A DNA stretch of 64,000 nucleotides from an uncultured Bdellovibrionales bacterium (GTDB taxonomy: Bacteria > Patescibacteriota > Minisyncoccia > Moranbacterales > UBA1568): assembly GCA_964530135.1 (NCBI GenBank), contig CAZGXN010000005.1:2269-66268 (forward strand), in the 5' to 3' direction. The position numbers and the translations under genes are program-made. The notes under the pieces are model-generated. The model did no database searches. It was not told the origin of the DNA and saw only the letters and a program-made list of their open reading frames with translations. Position 1 is the stretch's first letter. Each line of letters begins with the position of its first letter. Positions 5,147-55,825 of the stretch are shown piece by piece.

Positions 5147-5587
5147 TTAGATACGACGAGGACGACGAGGACGACAGCCATTGTGCGGGATCGGAGTGAT
5201 ATCTTTGATGGATGTGAGATTGAAACCATTGTTTGCGAGAGCTCGAATCGAGGCCTCTCGACCCTGACCCACACCTTTCACAAATACTTCGAGATCTTGA
5301 AGTCCGTATTTCTTCACTTTTTCAGAAACCTCCGCAACAACCTGAGTCGCTGCATATGGAGTTGATTTTTTAGCACCTTTGAAACCAAGATGCCCCGAGC
5401 TCGACCAGGCCAACACGCCGCCATTCATATCTGCGAGCGTTACAATCGTATTATTATAAGTACACTGAATACTGGCGCGACCAACCTGAACCAAACGCTT
5501 TACTTTTTTGGTGCGCTTTTTGGTATCCGCCTCTTCGGCCACTGGCGCTACCACCTCTACTTCCTCGGTTGTCAGCTCTTCTGCCAT
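5147..5587 (-). CDS. rpsK: 30S ribosomal protein S11
   Basis: GRASIQCTYNNTIVTLADMNGGVLAWSSSG and later conserved S11 blocks. Confidence 0.95.
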   Translation of the reverse strand: MAEELTTEEVEVVAPVAEEADTKKRTKKVKRLVQVGRASIQCTYNNTIVTLADMNGGVLAWSSSGHLGFKGAKKSTPYAATQVVAEVSEKVKKYGLQDLEVFVKGVGQGREASIRALANNGFNLTSIKDITPIPHNGCRPRRPRRI

Positions 5588-5595
5588 AGGATTCC

Positions 5596-5985
5596 TTATG
5601 TCTTGCTATCGGATTTCTTACGACCACTGCCCATCGTCTTTCTCACATTACCACGGACCGTCCGTGTGTTTGTTTTGGTACGCTGACCACGCACTGGCAA
5701 GCTCTTGGCATGACGGATACCGCGATACGATCCGATTTCCTTGAGCCGTTTGATGTTCATCTTTACCTGATGCCGAAGTTCACCTTCAACACGGTGTCCT
5801 TTTTCGATTGTTTCGCGCAAACGGTTGGCATCTTTCTCAGAAAGGTCTTTTGTCCGGATATCCCGATCAATGTTCAAAGACTCGAGGATCTTGCGGCTCG
5901 CTGGACGGCCGATGCCATAGATATAGGTCAACGCGATTTCGACGCGCTTGTTATCAGGCAAGTTGATACTGGCAATACGGAGCAT
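5596..5985 (-). CDS. rpsM: 30S ribosomal protein S13
   Basis: [26 protein letters not shown] typical S13 N-terminus. Confidence 0.95.
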
Positions 5986-5991
5986 AGGCTT

Positions 5992-6105
5992 TTATCCTTG
6001 ACGCTGTTTGTGCTTGGGGGTCTTGCAAATCACATGGACGACGCGATGGCGACGCACAATTTTGCAGTGAGCACAGATCTTTTTTACGGAAGCGCGGACT
6101 TTCAT
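5992..6105 (-). CDS. rpmJ: 50S ribosomal protein L36 (37 aa, not in ORF track)
   Basis: Manual translation of the minus strand gives [37 protein letters not shown], an L36 zinc-ribbon signature, in the expected infA-rpmJ-rpsM position. Confidence 0.85.
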
Positions 6106-6113
6106 AGCTTATT

Positions 6114-6338
6114 TTAGACTTTCAAACGCTGAACGATTCGTCCTTTGGTTAAGTCGTAGGGACTCATATCGACGATCACCCGATCTCCCGGAAGCAAACG
6201 GATATAATGCACCCGCATCTTTCCAGAAATGTGAGCCAACACCTCATGTCCATTGTCAAGACGGACTTTGAAGGTAGTGCTTGGAAGAGACTCGATCACC
6301 TCTCCCTCGAAACGAATAAGTTCTTTGTTATTTCCCAT
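6114..6338 (-). CDS. infA: translation initiation factor IF-1
   Basis: [39 protein letters not shown]1-like IF-1 sequence. Start trimmed to MGNNKE. Confidence 0.9.
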
Positions 6339-6581
6339 ATATTGCACCGGCTCTGGCGAGAGAATACTTTGCCAAAACAAAAAGAGAGTCATGCGTATAA
6401 TTCGTGCGTTCCTCAGTCTTGCATCGCGCCAGTATACCCTCTCTCACGAGATCCGTATGCACTTTTCAAATGTGCTCACAGTGTACTGGAAAGCCGAAAT
6501 GTTGTCAACAAACCGAATACTTGACTCCATCAAGACAATTCTGGGAGTCATTTTTATTGTCAGAAAATTCCTATTTTTGGC

Positions 6582-7298
6582 TTATTTACCATACCGCCGC
6601 TCCCGACCTTGATACTCTTCGATTGCGCGACGAAACCCTGCTGCATCAAAGTCCGGAAAGTCACAATTCGGAAAATAGAGTTGAGCATCTTTGGTCTCCC
6701 ACATCATAAACCCAGCGGACAAATGCGGATCATCTCCGGTTCGGATGAGAAGGTCCACTGACGGAATATCCGCTGTCGACAAATGACGCTTGATCACTTT
6801 CTCCGTTACCATACCTGGAGCAAGCCCTTCTCCTGCAATCCGTCGGACCGCCTGGAGCATATCATCATCCCCACTATAGGCGAGAAAAAAATTCAGAAAG
6901 TATTGATCGTGTTCGCGAGTGGCTTCGATCCCTTGTTTCAAAATAGTTTTCAAACTATCAGGAAATTGCTCTTCCCATCGACCGATACAGCGAATCCGCA
7001 CCCTATCTCGAAACACATCTTGATCTGCCATGAGCTTTTCAAAATAAGTCGCATAAATTCGAAGGAGTTCTTGTTTCTCTCGCAGAGGTCTCCGAACGAG
7101 ATTTTCTATCGATGAGCCCCAAAAAGAGAGTTCTTGAATTCCCATCCGTCGCGCCTCACGCACAATCTCTTCAAATCGCTCAGCTCCGGCCTGATGCCCC
7201 TCCCATGGCTCCTGGCCATGTTCCTTCGCCCAACGGCGATTGCCGTCCGGAATGATCGCCACATGACGGGGAAGAAATTTTTGGTTGAGTTCGGTCAT
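6582..7298 (-). CDS. uppS: undecaprenyl diphosphate synthase (cis-prenyltransferase)
   Basis: HVAIIPDGNRRWAKEHG signature. Start trimmed to MTELNQ so it does not overlap the upstream gene. Confidence 0.9.
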   Translation of the reverse strand: MTELNQKFLPRHVAIIPDGNRRWAKEHGQEPWEGHQAGAERFEEIVREARRMGIQELSFWGSSIENLVRRPLREKQELLRIYATYFEKLMADQDVFRDRVRIRCIGRWEEQFPDSLKTILKQGIEATREHDQYFLNFFLAYSGDDDMLQAVRRIAGEGLAPGMVTEKVIKRHLSTADIPSVDLLIRTGDDPHLSAGFMMWETKDAQLYFPNCDFPDFDAAGFRRAIEEYQGRERRYGK

Positions 7299-7314: not shown

Positions 7315-8400
7315 TCAATATTCGCGTTTGGCCATATAGTCAGCCACTCCCTCGAGAAAAGCGCGGGATTCGGGATGAATAGGGATTTGCATTTCATTCA
7401 AGGCCTGTTTGCCTTCCTCAATGTAGCGGAGGGCTAGATCCTTGGCTGCCTGCAATGACCCTGTTTCACGGAGAATTTCACGGAAACGGTTGATATCTGT
7501 GTGGGTGAGATGCATACCTCGCTTGAGGAGTTGATCAAGCTCTTTTTTAATGGTTCGATCAGCATGCTCAAAGACATATGCAACCAAAAGTGTAATCTTG
7601 CCCTCACGAATATCAGAACCGATTGGTTTCCCGATACGCTCCTCATCTCCGTAGATACCCAAGATATCATCCTGGATTTGGAAGGCGATACCCAGCGGAA
7701 GCGCATAACGAGACATCTCCGTTGCAAGTTCTGGTGTACCACCCGCGAGCAAGCTTCCAAGATGCAGTGGCCCTTCAACGGTATATCGCGCTGTTTTCTT
7801 CTCGTACATCGAGAGAATTTCCTCACTTGTGGCTTCGCCCTTGTATTCGATATAGATATCGCGGGCCTGCCCCACAACAGTATGAGAAACTATTTTCTGC
7901 ATCCGAGATAAGGCGGCGTAAACATTTTTTTCAGGGAAACCGGACTGAAAAATAATATCGTTGCCAAGTGCAAAGACCATATCCCCAACAATAAGTGCAA
8001 TGGAGTCACCAAAGTGATCGGCATTCGAGAGAAACAGATACTTCCGTCCCCAGGCCCGATAGCGTTCATGCAGCGTCGGTTCGCCATGACGGAGAGTATC
8101 CCGATCGATAATGTCGTCATGTATGAGGAGAAACATATGGATAAGCTCCACCGCCACGGCTGTGCTCATCAGTCGCTCTCGGTCGGTGCCGCCCGCTGCC
8201 AAGTAACCATAATACATAAACGCCGGCCGGAGGCGTTTTCCACCAGCCAGAGTCATTGCCTTCACATGTTTCAGCGCATCATAGACAAGTGCGTCTTCCC
8301 GCTTTGCTTCTTCGAGAGCATCGTCAAAATACGCTGCGATTTTTGGGTCAATCTGCGCTTTGAAGGCTTGTAATGTGGCCGGAATATCCATGTGCTTCAT
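7315..8400 (-). CDS. trans-polyprenyl diphosphate synthase (IspA/IspB family)
   Basis: FARM motif LLIHDDIIDRD and SARM motif FQIQDDILG. Chain-length specificity is not determinable from sequence. Confidence 0.85.
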   Translation of the reverse strand: MKHMDIPATLQAFKAQIDPKIAAYFDDALEEAKREDALVYDALKHVKAMTLAGGKRLRPAFMYYGYLAAGGTDRERLMSTAVAVELIHMFLLIHDDIIDRDTLRHGEPTLHERYRAWGRKYLFLSNADHFGDSIALIVGDMVFALGNDIIFQSGFPEKNVYAALSRMQKIVSHTVVGQARDIYIEYKGEATSEEILSMYEKKTARYTVEGPLHLGSLLAGGTPELATEMSRYALPLGIAFQIQDDILGIYGDEERIGKPIGSDIREGKITLLVAYVFEHADRTIKKELDQLLKRGMHLTHTDINRFREILRETGSLQAAKDLALRYIEEGKQALNEMQIPIHPESRAFLEGVADYMAKREY

Positions 8401-9583: not shown

Positions 9584-9655
9584 TAGCCCCAAGGGGAATC
9601 GAACCCCTGTTTCTTGGATGAGAACCAAGTGTCCTAGCCGCTAGACGATGGGGCC
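9584..9655 (-). tRNA. tRNA-Glu (anticodon CTC), no encoded CCA
   Basis: Hand-folded cloverleaf: acceptor GGCCCCA/TGGGGCT, D-arm GTCTAGCGGCTAGGAC, anticodon loop TTCTCAT, T-arm AGGGGTTCGATTCCCCT. Confidence 0.8.
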
Positions 9656-9730
9656 ATACTACGCTAAAGCTTCGTAATGGCAGGCCGTCTTTCGTCCGTT
9701 GAAACGGACTACGGAACGGCAGAGCCATTC

Positions 9731-9991
9731 CTACTTTTTATACTTCGTGATCTGTACTAACCGCTTGTACGCAAACGCTTTTCCTGAACCTGTCTTCAAA
9801 TACTTCTCGAAGTCTTTTGCCAAGCGCTCCTCTTCGAAAGCTGAGTAATAGACCAGCCTCCAGGGTATGAATGGTTTTGTTGCCTTCGACTTTTCTCCAT
9901 TATGCTCCACCAAACGTTTCCGTAAATCTTTTGTAAATCCATAGTAGAAATCTTTAGATTTCGGACTGTACAAAATATATACGTAATACAT
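9731..9991 (-). CDS. GIY-YIG nuclease superfamily protein (small standalone)
   Basis: MYYVYILYSPKSKDFYYGFTKDLRKRLVEHN is the GIY-YIG motif region. The track ORF N-extension was trimmed. Confidence 0.7.
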   Translation of the reverse strand: MYYVYILYSPKSKDFYYGFTKDLRKRLVEHNGEKSKATKPFIPWRLVYYSAFEEERLAKDFEKYLKTGSGKAFAYKRLVQITKYKK

Positions 9992-10170
9992 AGCCTGGCG
10001 AAGCAGTTCTGAAGCCTTGGCGAAAGACTGCAGGAGCGGCAGGAATCCTCTTCCTCCGTCGCTCGCGGTCGCGAGTGCGACAACGCTCGCTTCCTCCTCC
10101 AGAGCCTGGGTCAACTGAAAAGCCAAGCAGTTGGCTTTTCATCTGTACCCTCCGATTCCACATCACTCTT

Positions 10171-10213
10171 GCAAAGAAATCCCGCCCCGCTTCAGCGGGA
10201 CGCTATTTCTTTG
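10171..10213 (-). terminator. long hairpin (GCAAAGAAAT...ATTTCTTTGC with inner CCCGC-TTCA-GCGGG) immediately 3' of tRNA-Trp
   Basis: 10-bp outer plus 5-bp inner inverted repeat. No clear U-tract, so it may be a processing or terminator structure. Confidence 0.35.
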
Positions 10214-10284
10214 CAGGGGCGGCAGGAATCGGACCCGCGCTAAAGGTTTTGGAGACCTTTGTACTACCATTATACGACGCCCCT
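10214..10284 (-). tRNA. tRNA-Trp (anticodon CCA)
   Basis: Hand fold: acceptor AGGGGCG/CGCCCCT, anticodon stem AAGGT/ACCTT with loop CTCCAAA, T-loop TCCGATT. Sits in the canonical position after rpmG. Confidence 0.72.
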
Positions 10285-10338
10285 CTCTGCGCAACACAAG
10301 TGTTACACCAGTAAGTATACACGCTCGGACAACATCGA

Positions 10339-10479
10339 TTATTTCGACTCGTTGTGTACGGTATTCTTACGACAAAAGCGGCAATACTTCGAAAGTGAAA
10401 GTTTCTCCTTCACCTTCTTCTTATTACGCGAAGTTTCACGAGAAACGCGTTGACATTCGCTGCATTTCAATTTAGCCAT
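10339..10479 (-). CDS. rpmG: 50S ribosomal protein L33 (46 aa, not in ORF track)
   Basis: Manual translation gives MAKLKCSECQRVSRETSRNKKKVKEKLSLSKYCRFCRKNTVHNESK, an L33 zinc-ribbon with CxxC...CxxC. Confidence 0.85.
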   Translation of the reverse strand: MAKLKCSECQRVSRETSRNKKKVKEKLSLSKYCRFCRKNTVHNESK

Positions 10480-10603
10480 GTTTTCCTTGATCTTGCCCAT
10501 AGGTGTGACGCGGTTACTTCAAAATAATGGTTGCACTGTACGCGAAAAAACTGTCTTCGTCAATCTCCTTAAAAATTTTCTCTTTTCTTTCACCCCTCCC
10601 TTG

Positions 10604-10676
10604 AGCCGTTGACCGGATTTGAACCGGTGACCTACGCCTTACCATGGCGTTGCTCTACCAACTGAGCTACAACGGC
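10604..10676 (-). tRNA. tRNA-Thr (anticodon GGT)
   Basis: GCCGTTGTAGCTCAGTTGGTAGAGCAACGCCATGGTAAGGCGTAGGTCACCGGTTCAAATCCGGTCAACGGCT. Canonical cloverleaf with anticodon loop ATGGTAA. Confidence 0.8.
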
Positions 10677-10815
10677 TTTTTGAGTATATCAACGGATTCC
10701 GTTACGAATATTTTCCTGATATCTGATTACCCAGTAAAAAAGGAATATTCAGAGAGACTCCTCACTCCCCTCATAAAATCAAACCAATACTCCGAAAGTA
10801 TCATCTTGATTTTTG

Positions 10816-10898
10816 TGGGTAGGGAGGGATTCGAACCCCCGAAGCCCGAAGGCGACAGATTTACAGTCTGTTGTGATAGACCACTCCACCACCTACCC
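10816..10898 (-). tRNA. tRNA-Tyr (anticodon GTA) with long variable arm
   Basis: GGGTAGGTGGTGGAGTGGTC...ACAGACTGTAAATCTGT...GGGGGTTCGAATCCCTCCCTACCCA. Long extra arm as in bacterial tRNA-Tyr. Confidence 0.8.
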
Positions 10899-10952
10899 GC
10901 TGAAACAAATTGTTGTCAATTGTTACCACACACGGTCTCTCATTCTCCAGTG

Positions 10953-11025
10953 AGCCTGAGGTCGGGCTTGAACCGACGACCCACGGTTTACAAAACCGTT
11001 GCTCTACCAACTGAGCTACTCAGGC
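10953..11025 (-). tRNA. tRNA-Thr (anticodon TGT)
   Basis: GCCTGAGTAGCTCAGTTGGTAGAGCAACGGTTTTGTAAACCGTGGGTCGTCGGTTCAAGCCCGACCTCAGGCT. Confidence 0.8.
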
Positions 11026-13829: not shown

Positions 13830-14183
13830 ATGAAAACTGATATTCACCCAACCTACTACAGTAAGGTCCCCGTCACCTGTGTCTGTGGCGCGGCGTTTAC
13901 CACCGGCTCAACCGTTGAGGCGATCCATACAGAAATTTGCTCACAATGCCATCCGTTTTACACTGGCAAAAAGAAATTCGTCGATGCTGGTGGCCGAGTT
14001 GATCGCTTCAAGAAGCTCGCTGAGCGTGCCGAAAAGACCAAAGCAACGAAAACAGCTGTTGCCGCAAAACGGGCAAAAAAAGTAGCCGCTGAAGAAAAGG
14101 CTATGGCTAAAGCTGAAAAAGAGACTCAGGCGGCCGAAGCTGTCCGTGTCGCAAAAATTGAAAAGGCTAAAAAGTCCGCTTAG
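13830..14183 (+). CDS. rpmE: 50S ribosomal protein L31 with Lys/Ala-rich C-terminal extension
   Basis: [27 protein letters not shown]...[11 protein letters not shown] is the L31 core (~70 aa), followed by a ~45-aa AKKAAK-type tail. Confidence 0.9.
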
Positions 14184-15661: not shown

Positions 15662-16063
15662 TTAATCGAAGAATTCCCAAATGTTGTCGGCCGGCTTGTT
15701 CCAGCCAATAACCTTAAAGAAGGGCACCGTGAGTAGGAGCAACATGGGGATGAAGCCAATGAAGAGTATGAGGAGCATCACGCCACTGACGAGAGTGAAG
15801 ATGAAGTACCCCAATCGGCCAGACTCCACAGCGGCGGAGTAATACACACTCACCATGTTCCAGCTAGTGGACGGGAGCATAAGGAGCGCCCACACCCCAG
15901 CGAACAACGTAGTGCCGAGTACCACTGCGATGGAACTACGGAGTAACAGGAAGAGGACGCGTTTAATCATGACATTCTCCGGGTGAAACCGCTGAGCGGC
16001 AATGTTGAAGAAATTGGGAACGAACAACGGCATTATAGTAGCATAAAATTTAAATTTAGTCAA
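15662..16063 (-). CDS. small multi-pass membrane protein, hypothetical
   Basis: Three or four hydrophobic helices. No recognisable family. Confidence 0.35.
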   Translation of the reverse strand: MTKFKFYATIMPLFVPNFFNIAAQRFHPENVMIKRVLFLLLRSSIAVVLGTTLFAGVWALLMLPSTSWNMVSVYYSAAVESGRLGYFIFTLVSGVMLLILFIGFIPMLLLLTVPFFKVIGWNKPADNIWEFFD

Positions 16064-16095: not shown

Positions 16096-16989
16096 ATGAT
16101 GCCGGATTTGACCATCACTGAAGCTCTCAATCTCTCCCCCACTCTCCCACGACTCGATCGGGAGGTTTTGCTTTCCCATGTGATCGGGCAGGATCGGGTC
16201 TTTCTCATGGCGCACGGCGAAACCGAATTGACGCCAGCCCAATTGAAACGCTATCGAACCTTGCTCACACGCGCGACGAAGCACGAACCGATTGCATATA
16301 TCGTCGGCGAAAAAGAATTCTATGGCCGAAAATTTTTTGTTGGACCAGGCGTGCTCATTCCTCGTCCCGAGACCGAACTCCTCGTTGAGAGCACAAGAAA
16401 AAAGATTTTAACCGCTGCATACAAGAAAAAAAAGATTGCAATCGTTGATGTCGGCACCGGTAGCAGCGCGATCATCACGAGTATTTTTCTTTCGCTGAAT
16501 TCAGCGTGGCAAAAGAATATTTCCTGGTTCGCGGTCGACAGCGAAGCTGCCGCGCTTCGCTACGCCCGAAAAAATGCGCGACATCACCATGTGGACAAGG
16601 TTCGATTCATAGAGAGTGATCTCCTCACCAAACTCTCCAAGAGACTTTCCCGCTACGATGAAGTCTTCGCGATTGCCAACCTACCCTATCTTTCGCACGC
16701 TCTGTACCAAACCACCGCGCCAAATGTACAGCACTACGAACCGAAAAATGCCCTCGTTAGTGGCGAAGATGGCCTAGACCACTATCGCCGGCTCCTGGAA
16801 GAACTCCGAACACTTAGCCAGGCCGGCGTAAAAGTCAATTTTTCCTTTGAAGTAAGCCCTGAACAAGCTAGAAAGTTACCCTCCCTCTTCAAGGATATAT
16901 ATACTCTCTCCACACTCGAAATCCTACCCGATCTCGCCCAAAAGATGCGCGTCGTGATGGGCACTCTCGACCCGAAACAGACGGCTTGA
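16096..16989 (+). CDS. prmC: release-factor glutamine N5-methyltransferase (PrmC/HemK family)
   Basis: SAM-binding VDVGTGSSAI and NLPY (NPPY-type) motif. Sits next to prfA. Confidence 0.8.
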   Translation: MMPDLTITEALNLSPTLPRLDREVLLSHVIGQDRVFLMAHGETELTPAQLKRYRTLLTRATKHEPIAYIVGEKEFYGRKFFVGPGVLIPRPETELLVESTRKKILTAAYKKKKIAIVDVGTGSSAIITSIFLSLNSAWQKNISWFAVDSEAAALRYARKNARHHHVDKVRFIESDLLTKLSKRLSRYDEVFAIANLPYLSHALYQTTAPNVQHYEPKNALVSGEDGLDHYRRLLEELRTLSQAGVKVNFSFEVSPEQARKLPSLFKDIYTLSTLEILPDLAQKMRVVMGTLDPKQTA

Positions 16990-17043
16990 ATGAAAAACAA
17001 AACCCCCGCTTTAGCGGGGATTCTGTAAGAATACGCGAACTAA

Positions 17044-17136
17044 TTAGGCGCGACGCTTCGCGGACTTCTTAGCGGCCTTCTTCTTGGTCACCTTCTTTGC
17101 TACTTTCTTCTTCTTGGCTACTTTCTTTTTTGCCAT
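17044..17136 (-). CDS. 30-aa lysine-rich micro-protein (MAKKKVAKKKKVAKKVTKKKAAKKSAKRRA)
   Basis: Not in the ORF track (<60 aa). ATG preceded at 8 nt by GGAAGGAGGTGA, a near-perfect Shine-Dalgarno. Confidence 0.4.
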   Translation of the reverse strand: MAKKKVAKKKKVAKKVTKKKAAKKSAKRRA

Positions 17137-17213
17137 ATCAGGTCACCTCCTTCCAAAATTTTGTTTTCGCTTCCGTATGTTTACGGTTACGATGTTATTT
17201 TTCTTATTTGTTT

Positions 17214-17254
17214 GTGAAACAATTTTGTTTCACGCCCGTGTGAAGTTTCTCACA
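17214..17254. promoter_or_regulatory. two adjacent palindromes: GTGAAACAA-TT-TTGTTTCAC, and a CRP/FNR-type TGTGA-N6-TCACA (17239-17254)
   Basis: Perfect 9-bp inverted repeat, then an exact match to the CRP/FNR-family half-site arrangement. Both lie in a 680-bp ORF-free AT-rich region. Confidence 0.4.
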
Positions 17255-17683
17255 CGCTTATAGTATACTCCGTTCAAAAATTTTGCATAGAGTATTTGTC
17301 AAGAGTGTTACATCAATTTTTCATTCTCTCATCTCGTTCACAAAAAAATAGCGTGTACAGATTGAAGAATGCATAGCGCGTACTCAAAAATAAATACTTG
17401 CTTTCACTTTAATTATTTCTCCGGAGAGTACACTCATCACTCATAGAAACTATATAAAATTTTTCTTTTTCATTTCACTGAGAAAAATTCCGGATGTTTT
17501 CAACCCTCAACAACGCTGTGCGATAAAGAGTCAAGCAGATACCAACTGATTATCAATATAAACACCGTGAACAGAAACTTCCTTCTCGCTTCTCTCTCGT
17601 GCACGCCATTTCCCCTTGATAATGCTCAACAAATAGGTAATTTTCAGGCTTCATTAAGCTGAAAAGTGCTCTGTTTGTCTAGG

Positions 17684-17712
17684 TTGACACTCAACTTTTT
17701 CGACCGTACTAT
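17684..17712 (+). promoter_or_regulatory. near-consensus sigma70 promoter TTGACA-17-TACTAT followed by a structured ~100-nt leader
   Basis: Exact -35 hexamer with 17-nt spacer. The leader contains hairpin GTCCTTTT-CAGCCG-AAAAGGAC before the RBS of the 17821 ORF. Confidence 0.5.
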
Positions 17713-17820
17713 GAGGGAGGAAACGGGCGAATGAGGTCCTTTTCAGCCGAAAAGGACTCCCGTTGGGGCTTCAACGCAAGCAGCACATTCACAAGATAAT
17801 CTGTAAAGCTAGGAAGAGAG

Positions 17821-18411
17821 GTGACTCTTATGGATGAAAACATGAATTTGAACGACGAAGAGCGTGTCACTGATCAAGCGAAGGCTTGGCTTCAGGAAAA
17901 CCTGCGTGTTATTGTAAGCTTCTTCATTGTCGCCGCGATTGCGCTCGGGATTTACTCCTATTCGCAACGCGCCGATGAGACTGTTGATACTTCCGATACT
18001 CTCACTGCAAGCGAATCCAAAACAGCGGATTTGAACAAGGCAGCGGATGGAAAGGAAACGAATGATCAGTCAAAGGTTACAACCGAATCGAAAGAACTCA
18101 GCCAGGAAACCGAAGGATCGTTTATCGAAAGTGCCGCGAAAGGCGAAGGAACTACTCATCTCGCCCGCCGGGCCCTTATGAACTATCTCGAAAAAACTCC
18201 CGACTCATCACTCTCGGGTGAACACAAGGTCTATATCGAAGATTATCTTCGGAAACAACTCCGAGAACGTGGCCCAATTACAGTCGGCCACTCCGCGGAA
18301 TTTTCCAAGGATCTGATCCGTCAAGCTATCACTCAGTCAAAGCAGTTGAACGAAAAGCAGCTCAAGAATCTCAAGCAGTACTCGAATCGCGTCGCTGCCT
18401 ACCGATCGTAA
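17821..18411 (+). CDS. hypothetical single-pass membrane protein with acidic/Ser-Thr-rich extracytoplasmic region
   Basis: TM segment VIVSFFIVAAIALGIYSY. SD-like GAGAGGTG upstream. Confidence 0.45.
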   Translation: MTLMDENMNLNDEERVTDQAKAWLQENLRVIVSFFIVAAIALGIYSYSQRADETVDTSDTLTASESKTADLNKAADGKETNDQSKVTTESKELSQETEGSFIESAAKGEGTTHLARRALMNYLEKTPDSSLSGEHKVYIEDYLRKQLRERGPITVGHSAEFSKDLIRQAITQSKQLNEKQLKNLKQYSNRVAAYRS

Positions 18412-18455
18412 GCATCGCGCCACAGCTTTCCCTGTCCTTTATCTGCAATTGCACC

Positions 18456-18478
18456 AAAACCCCGGACCCCGGGGTTTT
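18456..18478. terminator. bidirectional rho-independent terminator AAAACCCCGG-ACC-CCGGGGTTTT
   Basis: Perfect GC stem flanked by A-run and T-run, between convergent genes. Confidence 0.6.
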
Positions 18479-18484
18479 GGCTTT

Positions 18485-38051: not shown

Positions 38052-38127
38052 ATTTCTCCAGTGAAAAAGAGTGGTGAAAAAACCACTCTTTTTTCTTTTT
38101 CAACATTCCTTCATGCTCGAAATTTTT

Positions 38128-54737: not shown

Positions 54738-54808
54738 TCGGGGCGTCGGGAATCGGACCCGAACTACAAGACCCCCAGCCTTGCGTACTACCACTATACT
54801 ACGCCCCG
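54738..54808 (-). tRNA. tRNA-Pro (anticodon GGG)
   Basis: Acceptor CGGGGCG/CGCCCCG, anticodon loop CTGGGGG, T-loop TCCGATT. Confidence 0.72.
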
Positions 54809-55788: not shown

Positions 55789-55825
55789 GATATAACACTT
55801 GACAAAAATTGTCAAGTGTTATATC
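55789..55825. promoter_or_regulatory. 37-bp perfect palindrome GATATAACACTTGACAA-AAA-TTGTCAAGTGTTATATC containing TTGACA on both strands
   Basis: 17-bp perfect inverted arms verified base by base. Lies 25 bp 3' of the ndk stop and overlaps a candidate TTGACA-17-TATCAT promoter for the minus-strand downstream region. Confidence 0.6.

Follow-up and report, generated by a model that had tools for sequence, protein, structure and literature searches.

The longest stretch without open reading frames (ORFs) in a 64-kb piece of a Moranbacteria genome (the whole piece is called the window below) appears to be the shared upstream DNA of two divergent monocistronic genes. One is a minus-strand micro-ORF for a small lysine-rich protein, whose mRNA would be stabilised by a structured 5' leader; the other, on the plus strand, encodes a predicted membrane-anchored protein and carries a conserved leader of its own. 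Moranbacteria belong to the candidate phyla radiation (CPR). We give this reading of the region a probability of about 0.72. The locus is described here as a gene for a small polycationic protein together with structured cis-acting leaders, and not as a CRP/FNR site, which is what a preliminary description of this DNA had seen in one of the leader hairpins.

Conservation and gene order of the region

No ORF of at least 60 amino acids (aa) was found on either strand between 17001 and 17820 (820 bp). No gap of this kind in the window is longer, the second-longest internal one measuring 297 bp, and an AT-rich region free of ORFs, as reported before, is thus confirmed. Measured from start codon to start codon, the non-coding interval spans 17137-17829 (693 bp), with a G+C content of 0.385, whereas the window as a whole has 0.491. 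Six genomes whose flanking PrmC proteins are about 65% identical share 75-95% identity at both ends of the interval; the middle is unalignable.

The gene order in the window is established as rpmE, prfA, a small membrane ORF, prmC, the micro-ORF (on the opposite strand), the long spacer, a gene for a 193-aa membrane protein, DUF192, and a family-4 glycosyltransferase. The closest PrmC proteins to that of the window (16096-16989) come from two Candidatus Moraniibacteriota metagenome-assembled genomes (loci L001 and L002; 65 and 63% identity, respectively), followed by those of remoter Moranbacteria. The core of the arrangement (rpmE-prfA-prmC, micro-ORF, spacer, and 193-aa gene) is common to L001, L002, L003, L005, L007, and L009. 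Locus L161 covers the order from prfA on and has the same arrangement. Of these loci, L001 and L002, the closest, alone have DUF192 and the glycosyltransferase after the core.

A conserved gene for a lysine-rich micro-protein

A 30-aa minus-strand ORF with a near-perfect Shine-Dalgarno (SD) sequence had been noted previously. Comparison with related loci indicates that it is a real gene, conserved and mostly unannotated. Apart from the leader hairpins, its transcription unit comprises the following elements.

17136..17044, minus strand: micro-ORF for a 30-aa protein rich in Lys, Ala, and Val (MAKKKVAKKKKVAKKVTKKKAAKKSAKRRA); orthologs at the same position, frame-keeping indels, Lys codon bias.
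17154..17143, minus strand: SD sequence GGAAGGAGGTGA, 6 nt before the ATG; GAAGGAGGTGA is invariant in 18 aligned leaders.
16997..17026, minus strand: intrinsic terminator of the micro-ORF transcript, CCCCGC-TAAA-GCGGGG plus a T run; 13-pair stem with T tail.
17262..17267, minus strand: -10 box TATACT of the predicted micro-ORF promoter; TATAAT or TATACT lies 91-178 nt before the ATG in essentially all 47 relatives.
17297..17303, minus strand: upstream element CTTGACA, conserved in the window group and in loci L003-L118.

A Lys-rich ORF convergent with prmC was identified in all seven close loci (L001, L002, L003, L005, L007, L009, and L161). Examples of the orthologous products are MATKKKKVTKKKAVKKVTKKKAAKKTAKRRA and MAKKKKVAKKKKVTKKKATKKRRA; forms of up to 59 aa occur, with (A/V/T)(A/V/T)KK repeats. 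A broader sample of 80 metagenome loci was fetched using an alignment of the membrane protein, and 61 of them hold at least 1.1 kb of upstream sequence. An SD-preceded Lys-rich ORF of 14-71 aa was present in 47 of these 61, on the opposite strand and 440-996 nt from the membrane-protein gene. The 14 loci in which no such ORF was found belong to remoter lineages.

The coding signals of the micro-ORF are established. All length differences among the orthologs preserve the frame, the ATG and the stop codon are conserved, and several synonymous changes (GCT/GCG to GCC, CGT to CGC) separate the window from L001. The window micro-ORF uses 12 AAG and 3 AAA codons for lysine, compared with 43% AAG in the long ORFs of the window (binomial P = 0.004). 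Over the 47 orthologs the ratio of AAG to AAA is 665:260 and no A-run is longer than 8 nt; this preference fits a translated sequence that avoids slippery poly(A). The SD sequence matches the complement of the canonical anti-SD over 10 contiguous nucleotides, the longest match in the window, where 62 long ORFs give matches of 2-7 nt. At the other end, the terminator sits just past the convergent prmC gene, and a GC hairpin followed by a T run comes after the micro-ORF in the window, as it does in each of the six relatives examined. The Joint Genome Institute annotation of one contig has a 28-aa gene at the position of the micro-ORF; two other pipelines call no gene there.

Searches for known relatives of the peptide gave no usable match. 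Pfam and NCBIfam profiles gave no match to histone H1-like or small ribosomal families, even at E up to 10, and phmmer gave 0 matches among 1.84 billion representative proteins. A word-indexed protein search with a 58-aa ortholog produced low-complexity noise only. None of 10 ortholog sequences was on record in an exact look-up against a collection of 15 billion proteins, and our literature search brought up no report of a peptide or RNA motif of this kind from Moranbacteria.

In most relatives the -10 box takes the form TATAAT, with TATACT in the window. The CTTGACA element stands 29 nt from the -10 box in the window and 29-37 nt overall, which is beyond the standard -35 distance. An AT-rich distant subgroup (L119-L152, including L125, L136, and L150) has a perfect DnaA box, TGTGGATAA, directly upstream of a micro-ORF promoter of the type TTGCAA-17-TATAAT. 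The box takes the place held by CTTGACA in the window group; L140 and L153 carry it in reverse orientation (TTATCCACA).

Three RNA hairpins in the micro-ORF leader

The 5' leader of the micro-ORF is about 120 nt long and consists, in order, of hairpins P1 and P2, an A-rich linker, hairpin P3, and the SD sequence. RNAfold gives this layout in most relatives. The hairpins are as follows.

17237..17256, minus strand: hairpin P1, CGTGTGA-AGTTTC-TCACACG (7 + 7 nt), the former CRP/FNR site; found 4-9 nt after the -10 box in the window and in relatives, where the stems differ.
17214..17233, minus strand: hairpin P2, the palindrome GTGAAACAA-TT-TTGTTTCAC (9 + 9 nt); compensatory and G·U changes in relatives.
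17167..17192, minus strand: hairpin P3, with inner stem CCGUA-AACA-UACGG at 17173-17186 and outer stem UCGU/GCGA; the stem covaries and the loop is U-R-A-A-C.

Judged from the -10 box, P1 is located at the predicted transcript start (+1). Leader identity among six close genomes is 89-93%, above that of the ORF (71-77%) and of the spacer (11-41%). Remote relatives keep P1 with unrelated stems, for example CGUAUCGGAA-AAAAA-UUCCGAUACG in L009 and UACAGGAA-AAUU-UUUCUGUA in L087. Two loop nucleotides have been lost in the close relative L161, which leaves TGTGA-N4-TCACA and an intact hairpin. The P2 palindrome, reported earlier, is exact in the window; it shows two compensatory pairs and one U·G pair in L081 and two G·U pairs in L002, which the plus strand would read as A·C mismatches. 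In P3 the sequence T-x-AAC is invariant in 18 leaders while the stem pairs covary (CG/UA, GC/AU). In the L003 and L005 lineages the P3 loop is replaced by a GAAA or UUCG tetraloop. In the window group P3 is followed directly by AAGCGAAAACAAAA.

Covariation was assessed on an alignment of 18 leaders (A3) that was made with MAFFT from sequence only; RNAalifold recovers P1 and P3 on it. Over these two hairpins 91.1% of the cells are paired, and 49 cells are changed on both sides. The observed value was attained in 0 of 500 column shuffles, and structures slid by 1-3 columns pair in 23-61% of cells. Non-Watson-Crick cells in P1 and P3 comprise 42 G·U and 3 A·C on the micro-ORF strand; we therefore read the helices as RNA of that strand and not as duplex DNA. 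Both the covariation and its strand are thereby established. Seven close leaders served to build a covariance model, which has exactly one match in the window (153 bits) and matches most relatives at the expected place and on the expected strand (for example L102, E = 2e-7). The alignment fitted to this model (A8) contains double changes at all 25 pairs, including all 7 P2 pairs, but it only complements A3 because it is biased towards structure. The folding z-score of the leader is -4.3 in the window, with a median of -4.1 over 47 leaders, of which 85% fall below -2. Taken together, the covariation, the controls, the strand asymmetry, and the z-scores indicate that P1 is maintained by selection as an RNA hairpin. 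A repeated element, such as a repetitive extragenic palindrome or a miniature inverted-repeat transposable element, was ruled out, as each hairpin sequence is present once in the window.

The divergent membrane-protein gene and its leader

On the plus strand, the following elements were recognised.

17653..17667, plus strand: promoter-upstream element ATTAAGCTGAAAAGT, family consensus ATTA[CA]GCC..AAAA, at a constant distance from the -35 box in most of 64 unique upstream sequences.
17674..17712, plus strand: promoter of the membrane-protein gene, TTTGTCTAGG, then TTGACA (17684-17689), 17 nt, and TACTAT (17707-17712); conserved.
17713..17829, plus strand: 5' leader of the membrane-protein gene, with its start predicted near 17719; 75-95% identity across six genomes.
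17722..17764, plus strand: hairpin H, AACGGG..GGUCCUUUUC-AGCC-GAAAAGGAC..CCCGUU; L001 and L002 show a compensatory C-G to U-A change as well as G·U changes.
17768..17781, plus strand: invariant element GCUUCAACGCAAGC (GCUUCAACGNAAGC), one exact copy in the window.
17812..17824, plus strand: SD region GGAAGAGAGGTGA with an invariant CTAG before it; conserved among relatives.
17830..18411, plus strand: Moranbacteria hypothetical protein of 193 aa; modelled with an N-terminal transmembrane helix, a disordered linker, and a C-terminal alpha/beta domain.

It had been proposed that a TTGACA-17-TACTAT promoter at 17684-17712 drives a structured leader. Both promoter and leader proved to be conserved, and the leader hairpin covaries. 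Among 63 relatives the promoter reads TTGAC[AG]-17-TA(C/G)TAT, TACCAT, or TAAAAT, and the order of the blocks is ATTA[CA]GCC..AAAA, TTTGTCYAG, TTGAC[AG], 17 nt, and the -10 box. The leader, about 110 nt long, likewise has a fixed order of blocks in 63 unique relatives. It begins with about 10 nt, followed by GGGGGUCGAU in most relatives or GGGCGAAUGA in the window lineage (17725-17734) and by a variable hairpin. Its 3' part consists of GCUUCAACG[C/A/U]AAGC, RGUACWUUC, at times an extra hairpin, CUAG-RAAGRRAGGUGA, and the ATG. At the position of hairpin H relatives carry a hairpin of other sequence. L001 (7636-7740) and L082 have about 100 additional nucleotides between GAUAAUCU and GUAAAGCUAGG, which fold into a long hairpin; this insertion is not present in the window, L002, L081, or L161.

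Each of 79 related loci has exactly one copy of the 13-mer CTTCAACGNAAGC, upstream of the gene and on its strand; 0 of the other 84 loci compared have it. The invariant element is non-coding, because there is an in-frame stop at 17797 and no plus-strand ORF spans the element. A leader peptide was also considered and rejected: ATGs follow a GGAGG-like block in some lineages only, and their frames are inconsistent. The plus-strand leader is most likely a site of sequence-specific post-transcriptional control. When the leader was assessed as a possible riboswitch, we found invariant blocks, one hairpin with some covariation, and a modest folding z-score (-1.6 in the window, median -1.6 for 59 relatives). 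No SD-sequestering helix was detected, as RNAalifold gave no consensus pairs for the 3' part, and beyond the variable hairpin no fold shared by the relatives could be defined.

A regulatory RNA had been suspected in the region; neither leader matches an Rfam family. At the gathering thresholds, only tRNAs were detected by Rfam in the whole window and in 20 related loci. A permissive search of 16900-17950 gave a lowest E of 0.15 (24.1 bits against a threshold of 55 bits), on the terminator. The plus-strand leader resembles the cis-regulatory leaders and riboswitch candidates of Rfam in being the conserved 5' untranslated region (UTR) of one gene family, with an invariant core and a variable hairpin. 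It differs from them in that it has no family match, no multi-stem covarying junction can be defined, and the gene hints at no ligand.

The start codon of the downstream gene is most likely ATG 17830 and not GTG 17821, where it had been placed before, because the GTG falls inside the SD sequence and ATG 17830 aligns with the starts of relatives. About 1400 homologs of the 193-aa protein were found, all of them unnamed or "hypothetical", and no Pfam domain is recognised. The AlphaFold model has a pLDDT (predicted local distance difference test) score of 68, and a Foldseek comparison of the model with the PDB gave no match with E below 0.5. The protein is lineage-specific and predicted to be membrane-anchored.

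Two sequence resemblances concern this leader. GGUCGA occurs near its 5' end in most relatives, and in the distant subgroup L119-L157 it occurs also in the micro-ORF leader, as AAAGGUCGAAAAC; a shared RNA-binding factor for the two divergent leaders is possible. The leader blocks UCGAU...CAACGCAAG are similar to the helix 31 region of Escherichia coli 16S rRNA, which reads UUCGAUGCAACGCGAAG and so holds both UCGAU and CAACGC. This likeness, noted with the E. coli molecule, may be due to chance.

The central spacer

The two promoters are separated by a single further feature.

17314..17643, no strand: AT-rich spacer, G+C content 0.358; unconserved, 330 bp between the divergent promoters.

Per 30-nt bin, the spacer is 11-41% identical to five close relatives, compared with 68-95% on both flanks. 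Its folding z-scores range from +0.5 to -1.5 and it contains no ORF of at least 60 aa. We conclude that the spacer is unconstrained. It had been suggested that the rest of the region might encode a regulatory RNA; we find no support for this in the central 330 bp, which lack both conservation and unusual structure, and the conserved non-coding parts are the two leaders. A replication origin or DnaA site was rejected, as the GC skew is negative throughout and the region holds no DnaA box with at most one mismatch.

Proposed function of the micro-ORF leader

We propose that the minus-strand promoter (-10 TATACT, 17267..17262) would start a transcript of about 260 nt ending at the terminator (17026..16997). 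The leader of this transcript would fold into three stem-loops, with P1 at the very 5' end and A-rich linkers between them, followed by the very strong SD sequence. By analogy with known stabilisers, the 5'-terminal hairpins and ribosomes parked on the strong SD sequence may shield the short mRNA from 5'-end-dependent decay. The shielded mRNA would allow a small, very basic, presumably nucleic-acid-binding peptide to be made in quantity; given the strongest SD sequence of the window and a stabilised mRNA, the peptide is likely to be abundant. The loop of P3, conserved in sequence, is a more speculative candidate for a feedback-binding site. The plus-strand promoter, for its part, would make a leader composed of a G-run/UCGAU-like block, the variable hairpin, GCUUCAACGCAAGC, and the CUAG-SD block, followed by the gene for the membrane-anchored protein.

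The closest precedent is the hbs mRNA of Bacillus subtilis, which encodes a small, abundant, basic DNA-binding protein; its 5' UTR is highly structured and its SD sequence strong, and the initiating ribosomes block RNase J1 (PMC5737220). The micro-ORF shares with the hbs leader and other 5' stabilisers (PMC5737220; reviewed in PMC3997798) a long, highly structured leader whose predicted 5' end bears a hairpin, an exceptionally strong SD sequence, a short gene whose small basic product is presumed to be abundant and nucleic-acid-binding, and a monocistronic transcript with its own terminator. It differs in that there is no relationship to these stabilisers in sequence or by covariance model, the host is a CPR bacterium, the 5' end and any effect on half-life are predictions, and the loop of P3 carries a conserved motif. 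We know of no counterpart of this motif.

Several points weigh against the stabilised-leader interpretation. Both transcription starts, that of the micro-ORF and that of the membrane-protein gene, are predicted from -10 boxes. At 16-18 nt the micro-ORF promoter lacks a good -35 box, and the perfectly conserved CTTGACA is unexplained. The cells counted as covarying are not independent events, and alignment A8 was fitted to the model. In the plus-strand leader only hairpin H covaries, since the invariant element cannot covary, and the consensus pairs missing from the 3' half and the modest z-score have to be set beside this. Finally, the partner of the peptide (DNA, rRNA, or polyphosphate) is a guess, because the peptide is of low complexity and homology searches yield nothing usable.

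The alternative that survives best, although we regard it as unlikely, is that the leader hairpins, chiefly P3, are a translational operator bound by the lysine-rich peptide or its particle and that stabilisation is not their main function; the feedback would then resemble that exerted through ribosomal-protein leaders. In P3 an invariant loop tops a stem that covaries, which points to recognition of a specific sequence; P3 is placed 20-45 nt before the SD sequence, and the leader is better conserved than the coding sequence. The gene moreover adjoins rpmE-prfA-prmC, and Ala/Lys-rich tails are found on Parcubacteria ribosomal proteins (PMC9297842) and on L31 of the window. However, a peptide of 14-71 aa made of Lys/Ala repeats is unlikely to read a specific loop, and the loop is exchanged for UUCG or GAAA tetraloops in the L003 and L005 lineages.

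We consider it very improbable that the inverted repeats are DNA operators at which a dimeric factor, of the CRP/FNR type or another, represses the micro-ORF promoter. The preliminary description was correct in that TGTGA-N6-TCACA is present at 17239-17254 and matches the consensus half-sites and spacing exactly; the assignment to a CRP/FNR-type operator did not stand, and the site is hairpin P1. The exact site is conserved in the window, L001, L002, L081, L082, and L084, and, as is typical of repressor sites, it coincides in part with the predicted transcription start. Yet the site and the adjacent palindrome both lie downstream of the conserved minus-strand -10 box, and the orthologous hairpins remain paired with different sequences. 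Neither the half-sites nor the N6 spacing is kept at orthologous promoters: L161 has N4, unrelated stems occupy the same position in L003, L005, L009, and L087-L134, and equivalent hairpins carry UUCG and GNRA tetraloops. The strand-symmetric substitutions expected of a duplex operator are not seen either; the G·U to A·C ratio of 42:3 is that of a one-strand RNA helix. Over the 64 kb there is one exact CRP-like site, and 3 sites with at most one mismatch were counted against 2.07 expected, which is no enrichment. A tblastn search with E. coli CRP and FNR gave no match within the window, so that neither a regulator nor a regulon is seen there. A perfect TGTGA-N6-TCACA match can, as this case cautions, turn out to be an RNA hairpin.

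Equally remote is the possibility that the minus-strand transcript is a structured non-coding RNA with an incidental poly-lysine frame, or that the spacer hides an independent small RNA or origin-like element: the very strong RNA structure signal, the absence of the exact peptide sequence from protein databases, and the DnaA box beside the promoter of distant relatives are outweighed by the frame-kept lengths, the conserved ATG and stop, the strongest SD sequence, the synonymous changes and AAG bias, a spacer neither conserved nor structured, and a GC skew of constant sign with no DnaA box in the region.

Neighbouring genes and other inverted repeats

A predicted 133-aa membrane protein with no Pfam match is encoded between prfA and prmC on the opposite strand (15662-16063, minus strand), and a gene of 120 aa is called at the same place in L161-L163. 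Five tRNA genes are clustered at 9584-11025 (minus strand), upstream of rpmE-prfA-prmC, and one more is found at 54738-54808 (minus strand); L001, L003, L005, and L009 likewise have the tRNA cluster. In L002, the C-terminus of prfA runs on into prmC as a single ORF (5401-6747) and the membrane-protein gene is represented by two ORFs (7604-8195). The fused prfA/prmC and the split membrane-protein gene are probably frameshift errors of the assembly and not biology. Other long perfect inverted repeats in the window, with arms of 10-17 nt, are located at 55789-55825, 38064-38093, 10116-10141, and 18454-18480. The last of these, lying where the membrane-protein and DUF192 genes converge, probably serves both as a terminator.

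Relation to other lysine-rich proteins and implications

Repeats of four to five residues rich in Lys, Ala, Val, and Thr are known from H1-like bacterial proteins, including Hc2 of Chlamydia (PMC2848022), AlgP of Pseudomonas (PMC9239181), and the AKKA tails of mycobacterial HupB and HbhA (PMC10665949), and the micro-protein shares this composition. The number of Hc2 repeats varies between strains (PMC2848022). In the micro-protein, too, repeat number and length vary among lineages, and like the Hc2-type proteins it is predicted to be disordered and is polycationic. It differs from them in being free-standing and only 14-71 aa long (against 100-350 aa), with no folded domain and no Pfam or NCBIfam profile match, and its DNA binding is putative.

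A second group for comparison is formed by the tails of ribosomal proteins in Parcubacteria, where uS19 has an Ala/Lys-rich C-terminal extension (PMC9297842). These tails and that of bL31 in the window have in common with the micro-protein the clade and the composition, and the micro-protein gene adjoins the translation genes rpmE, prfA, and prmC. The micro-protein differs in being encoded by a separate gene, and a place for it on the ribosome is conjectural. In the L31 protein of the window (13830-14183, plus strand) the C-terminus is extended by about 50 aa with a high content of Lys, Ala, and Glu, which echoes both the uS19 tails and the composition of the micro-protein. Among small ribosomal proteins, the NCBIfam models of the bS22, bL37, and bTHX type did not match the micro-protein.

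A broader reading, which we offer as tentative and consider doubtful as a whole, is that a polycationic and largely unannotated micro-protein, a free-standing version of the ribosomal tails, exists throughout Moranbacteria and that two undescribed leader RNAs control both genes, perhaps in response to a common RNA-binding factor. The two RNA elements would be the three-hairpin leader with the URAAC loop and the GGUCGA...GCUUCAACGCAAGC leader. A common factor is suggested because GGUCGA occurs in both divergent leaders of distant members.

Bacteria of the CPR have not been cultivated, and very little has been charted of their small proteins and regulatory RNAs. The locus described here adds a conserved micro-protein that gene callers have mostly missed and two conserved leader RNAs that lie outside Rfam. 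If the peptide is a component of the nucleoid or of the ribosome, it would bear on how nucleic acids are neutralised and organised in organisms with reduced genomes and reduced ribosomes.

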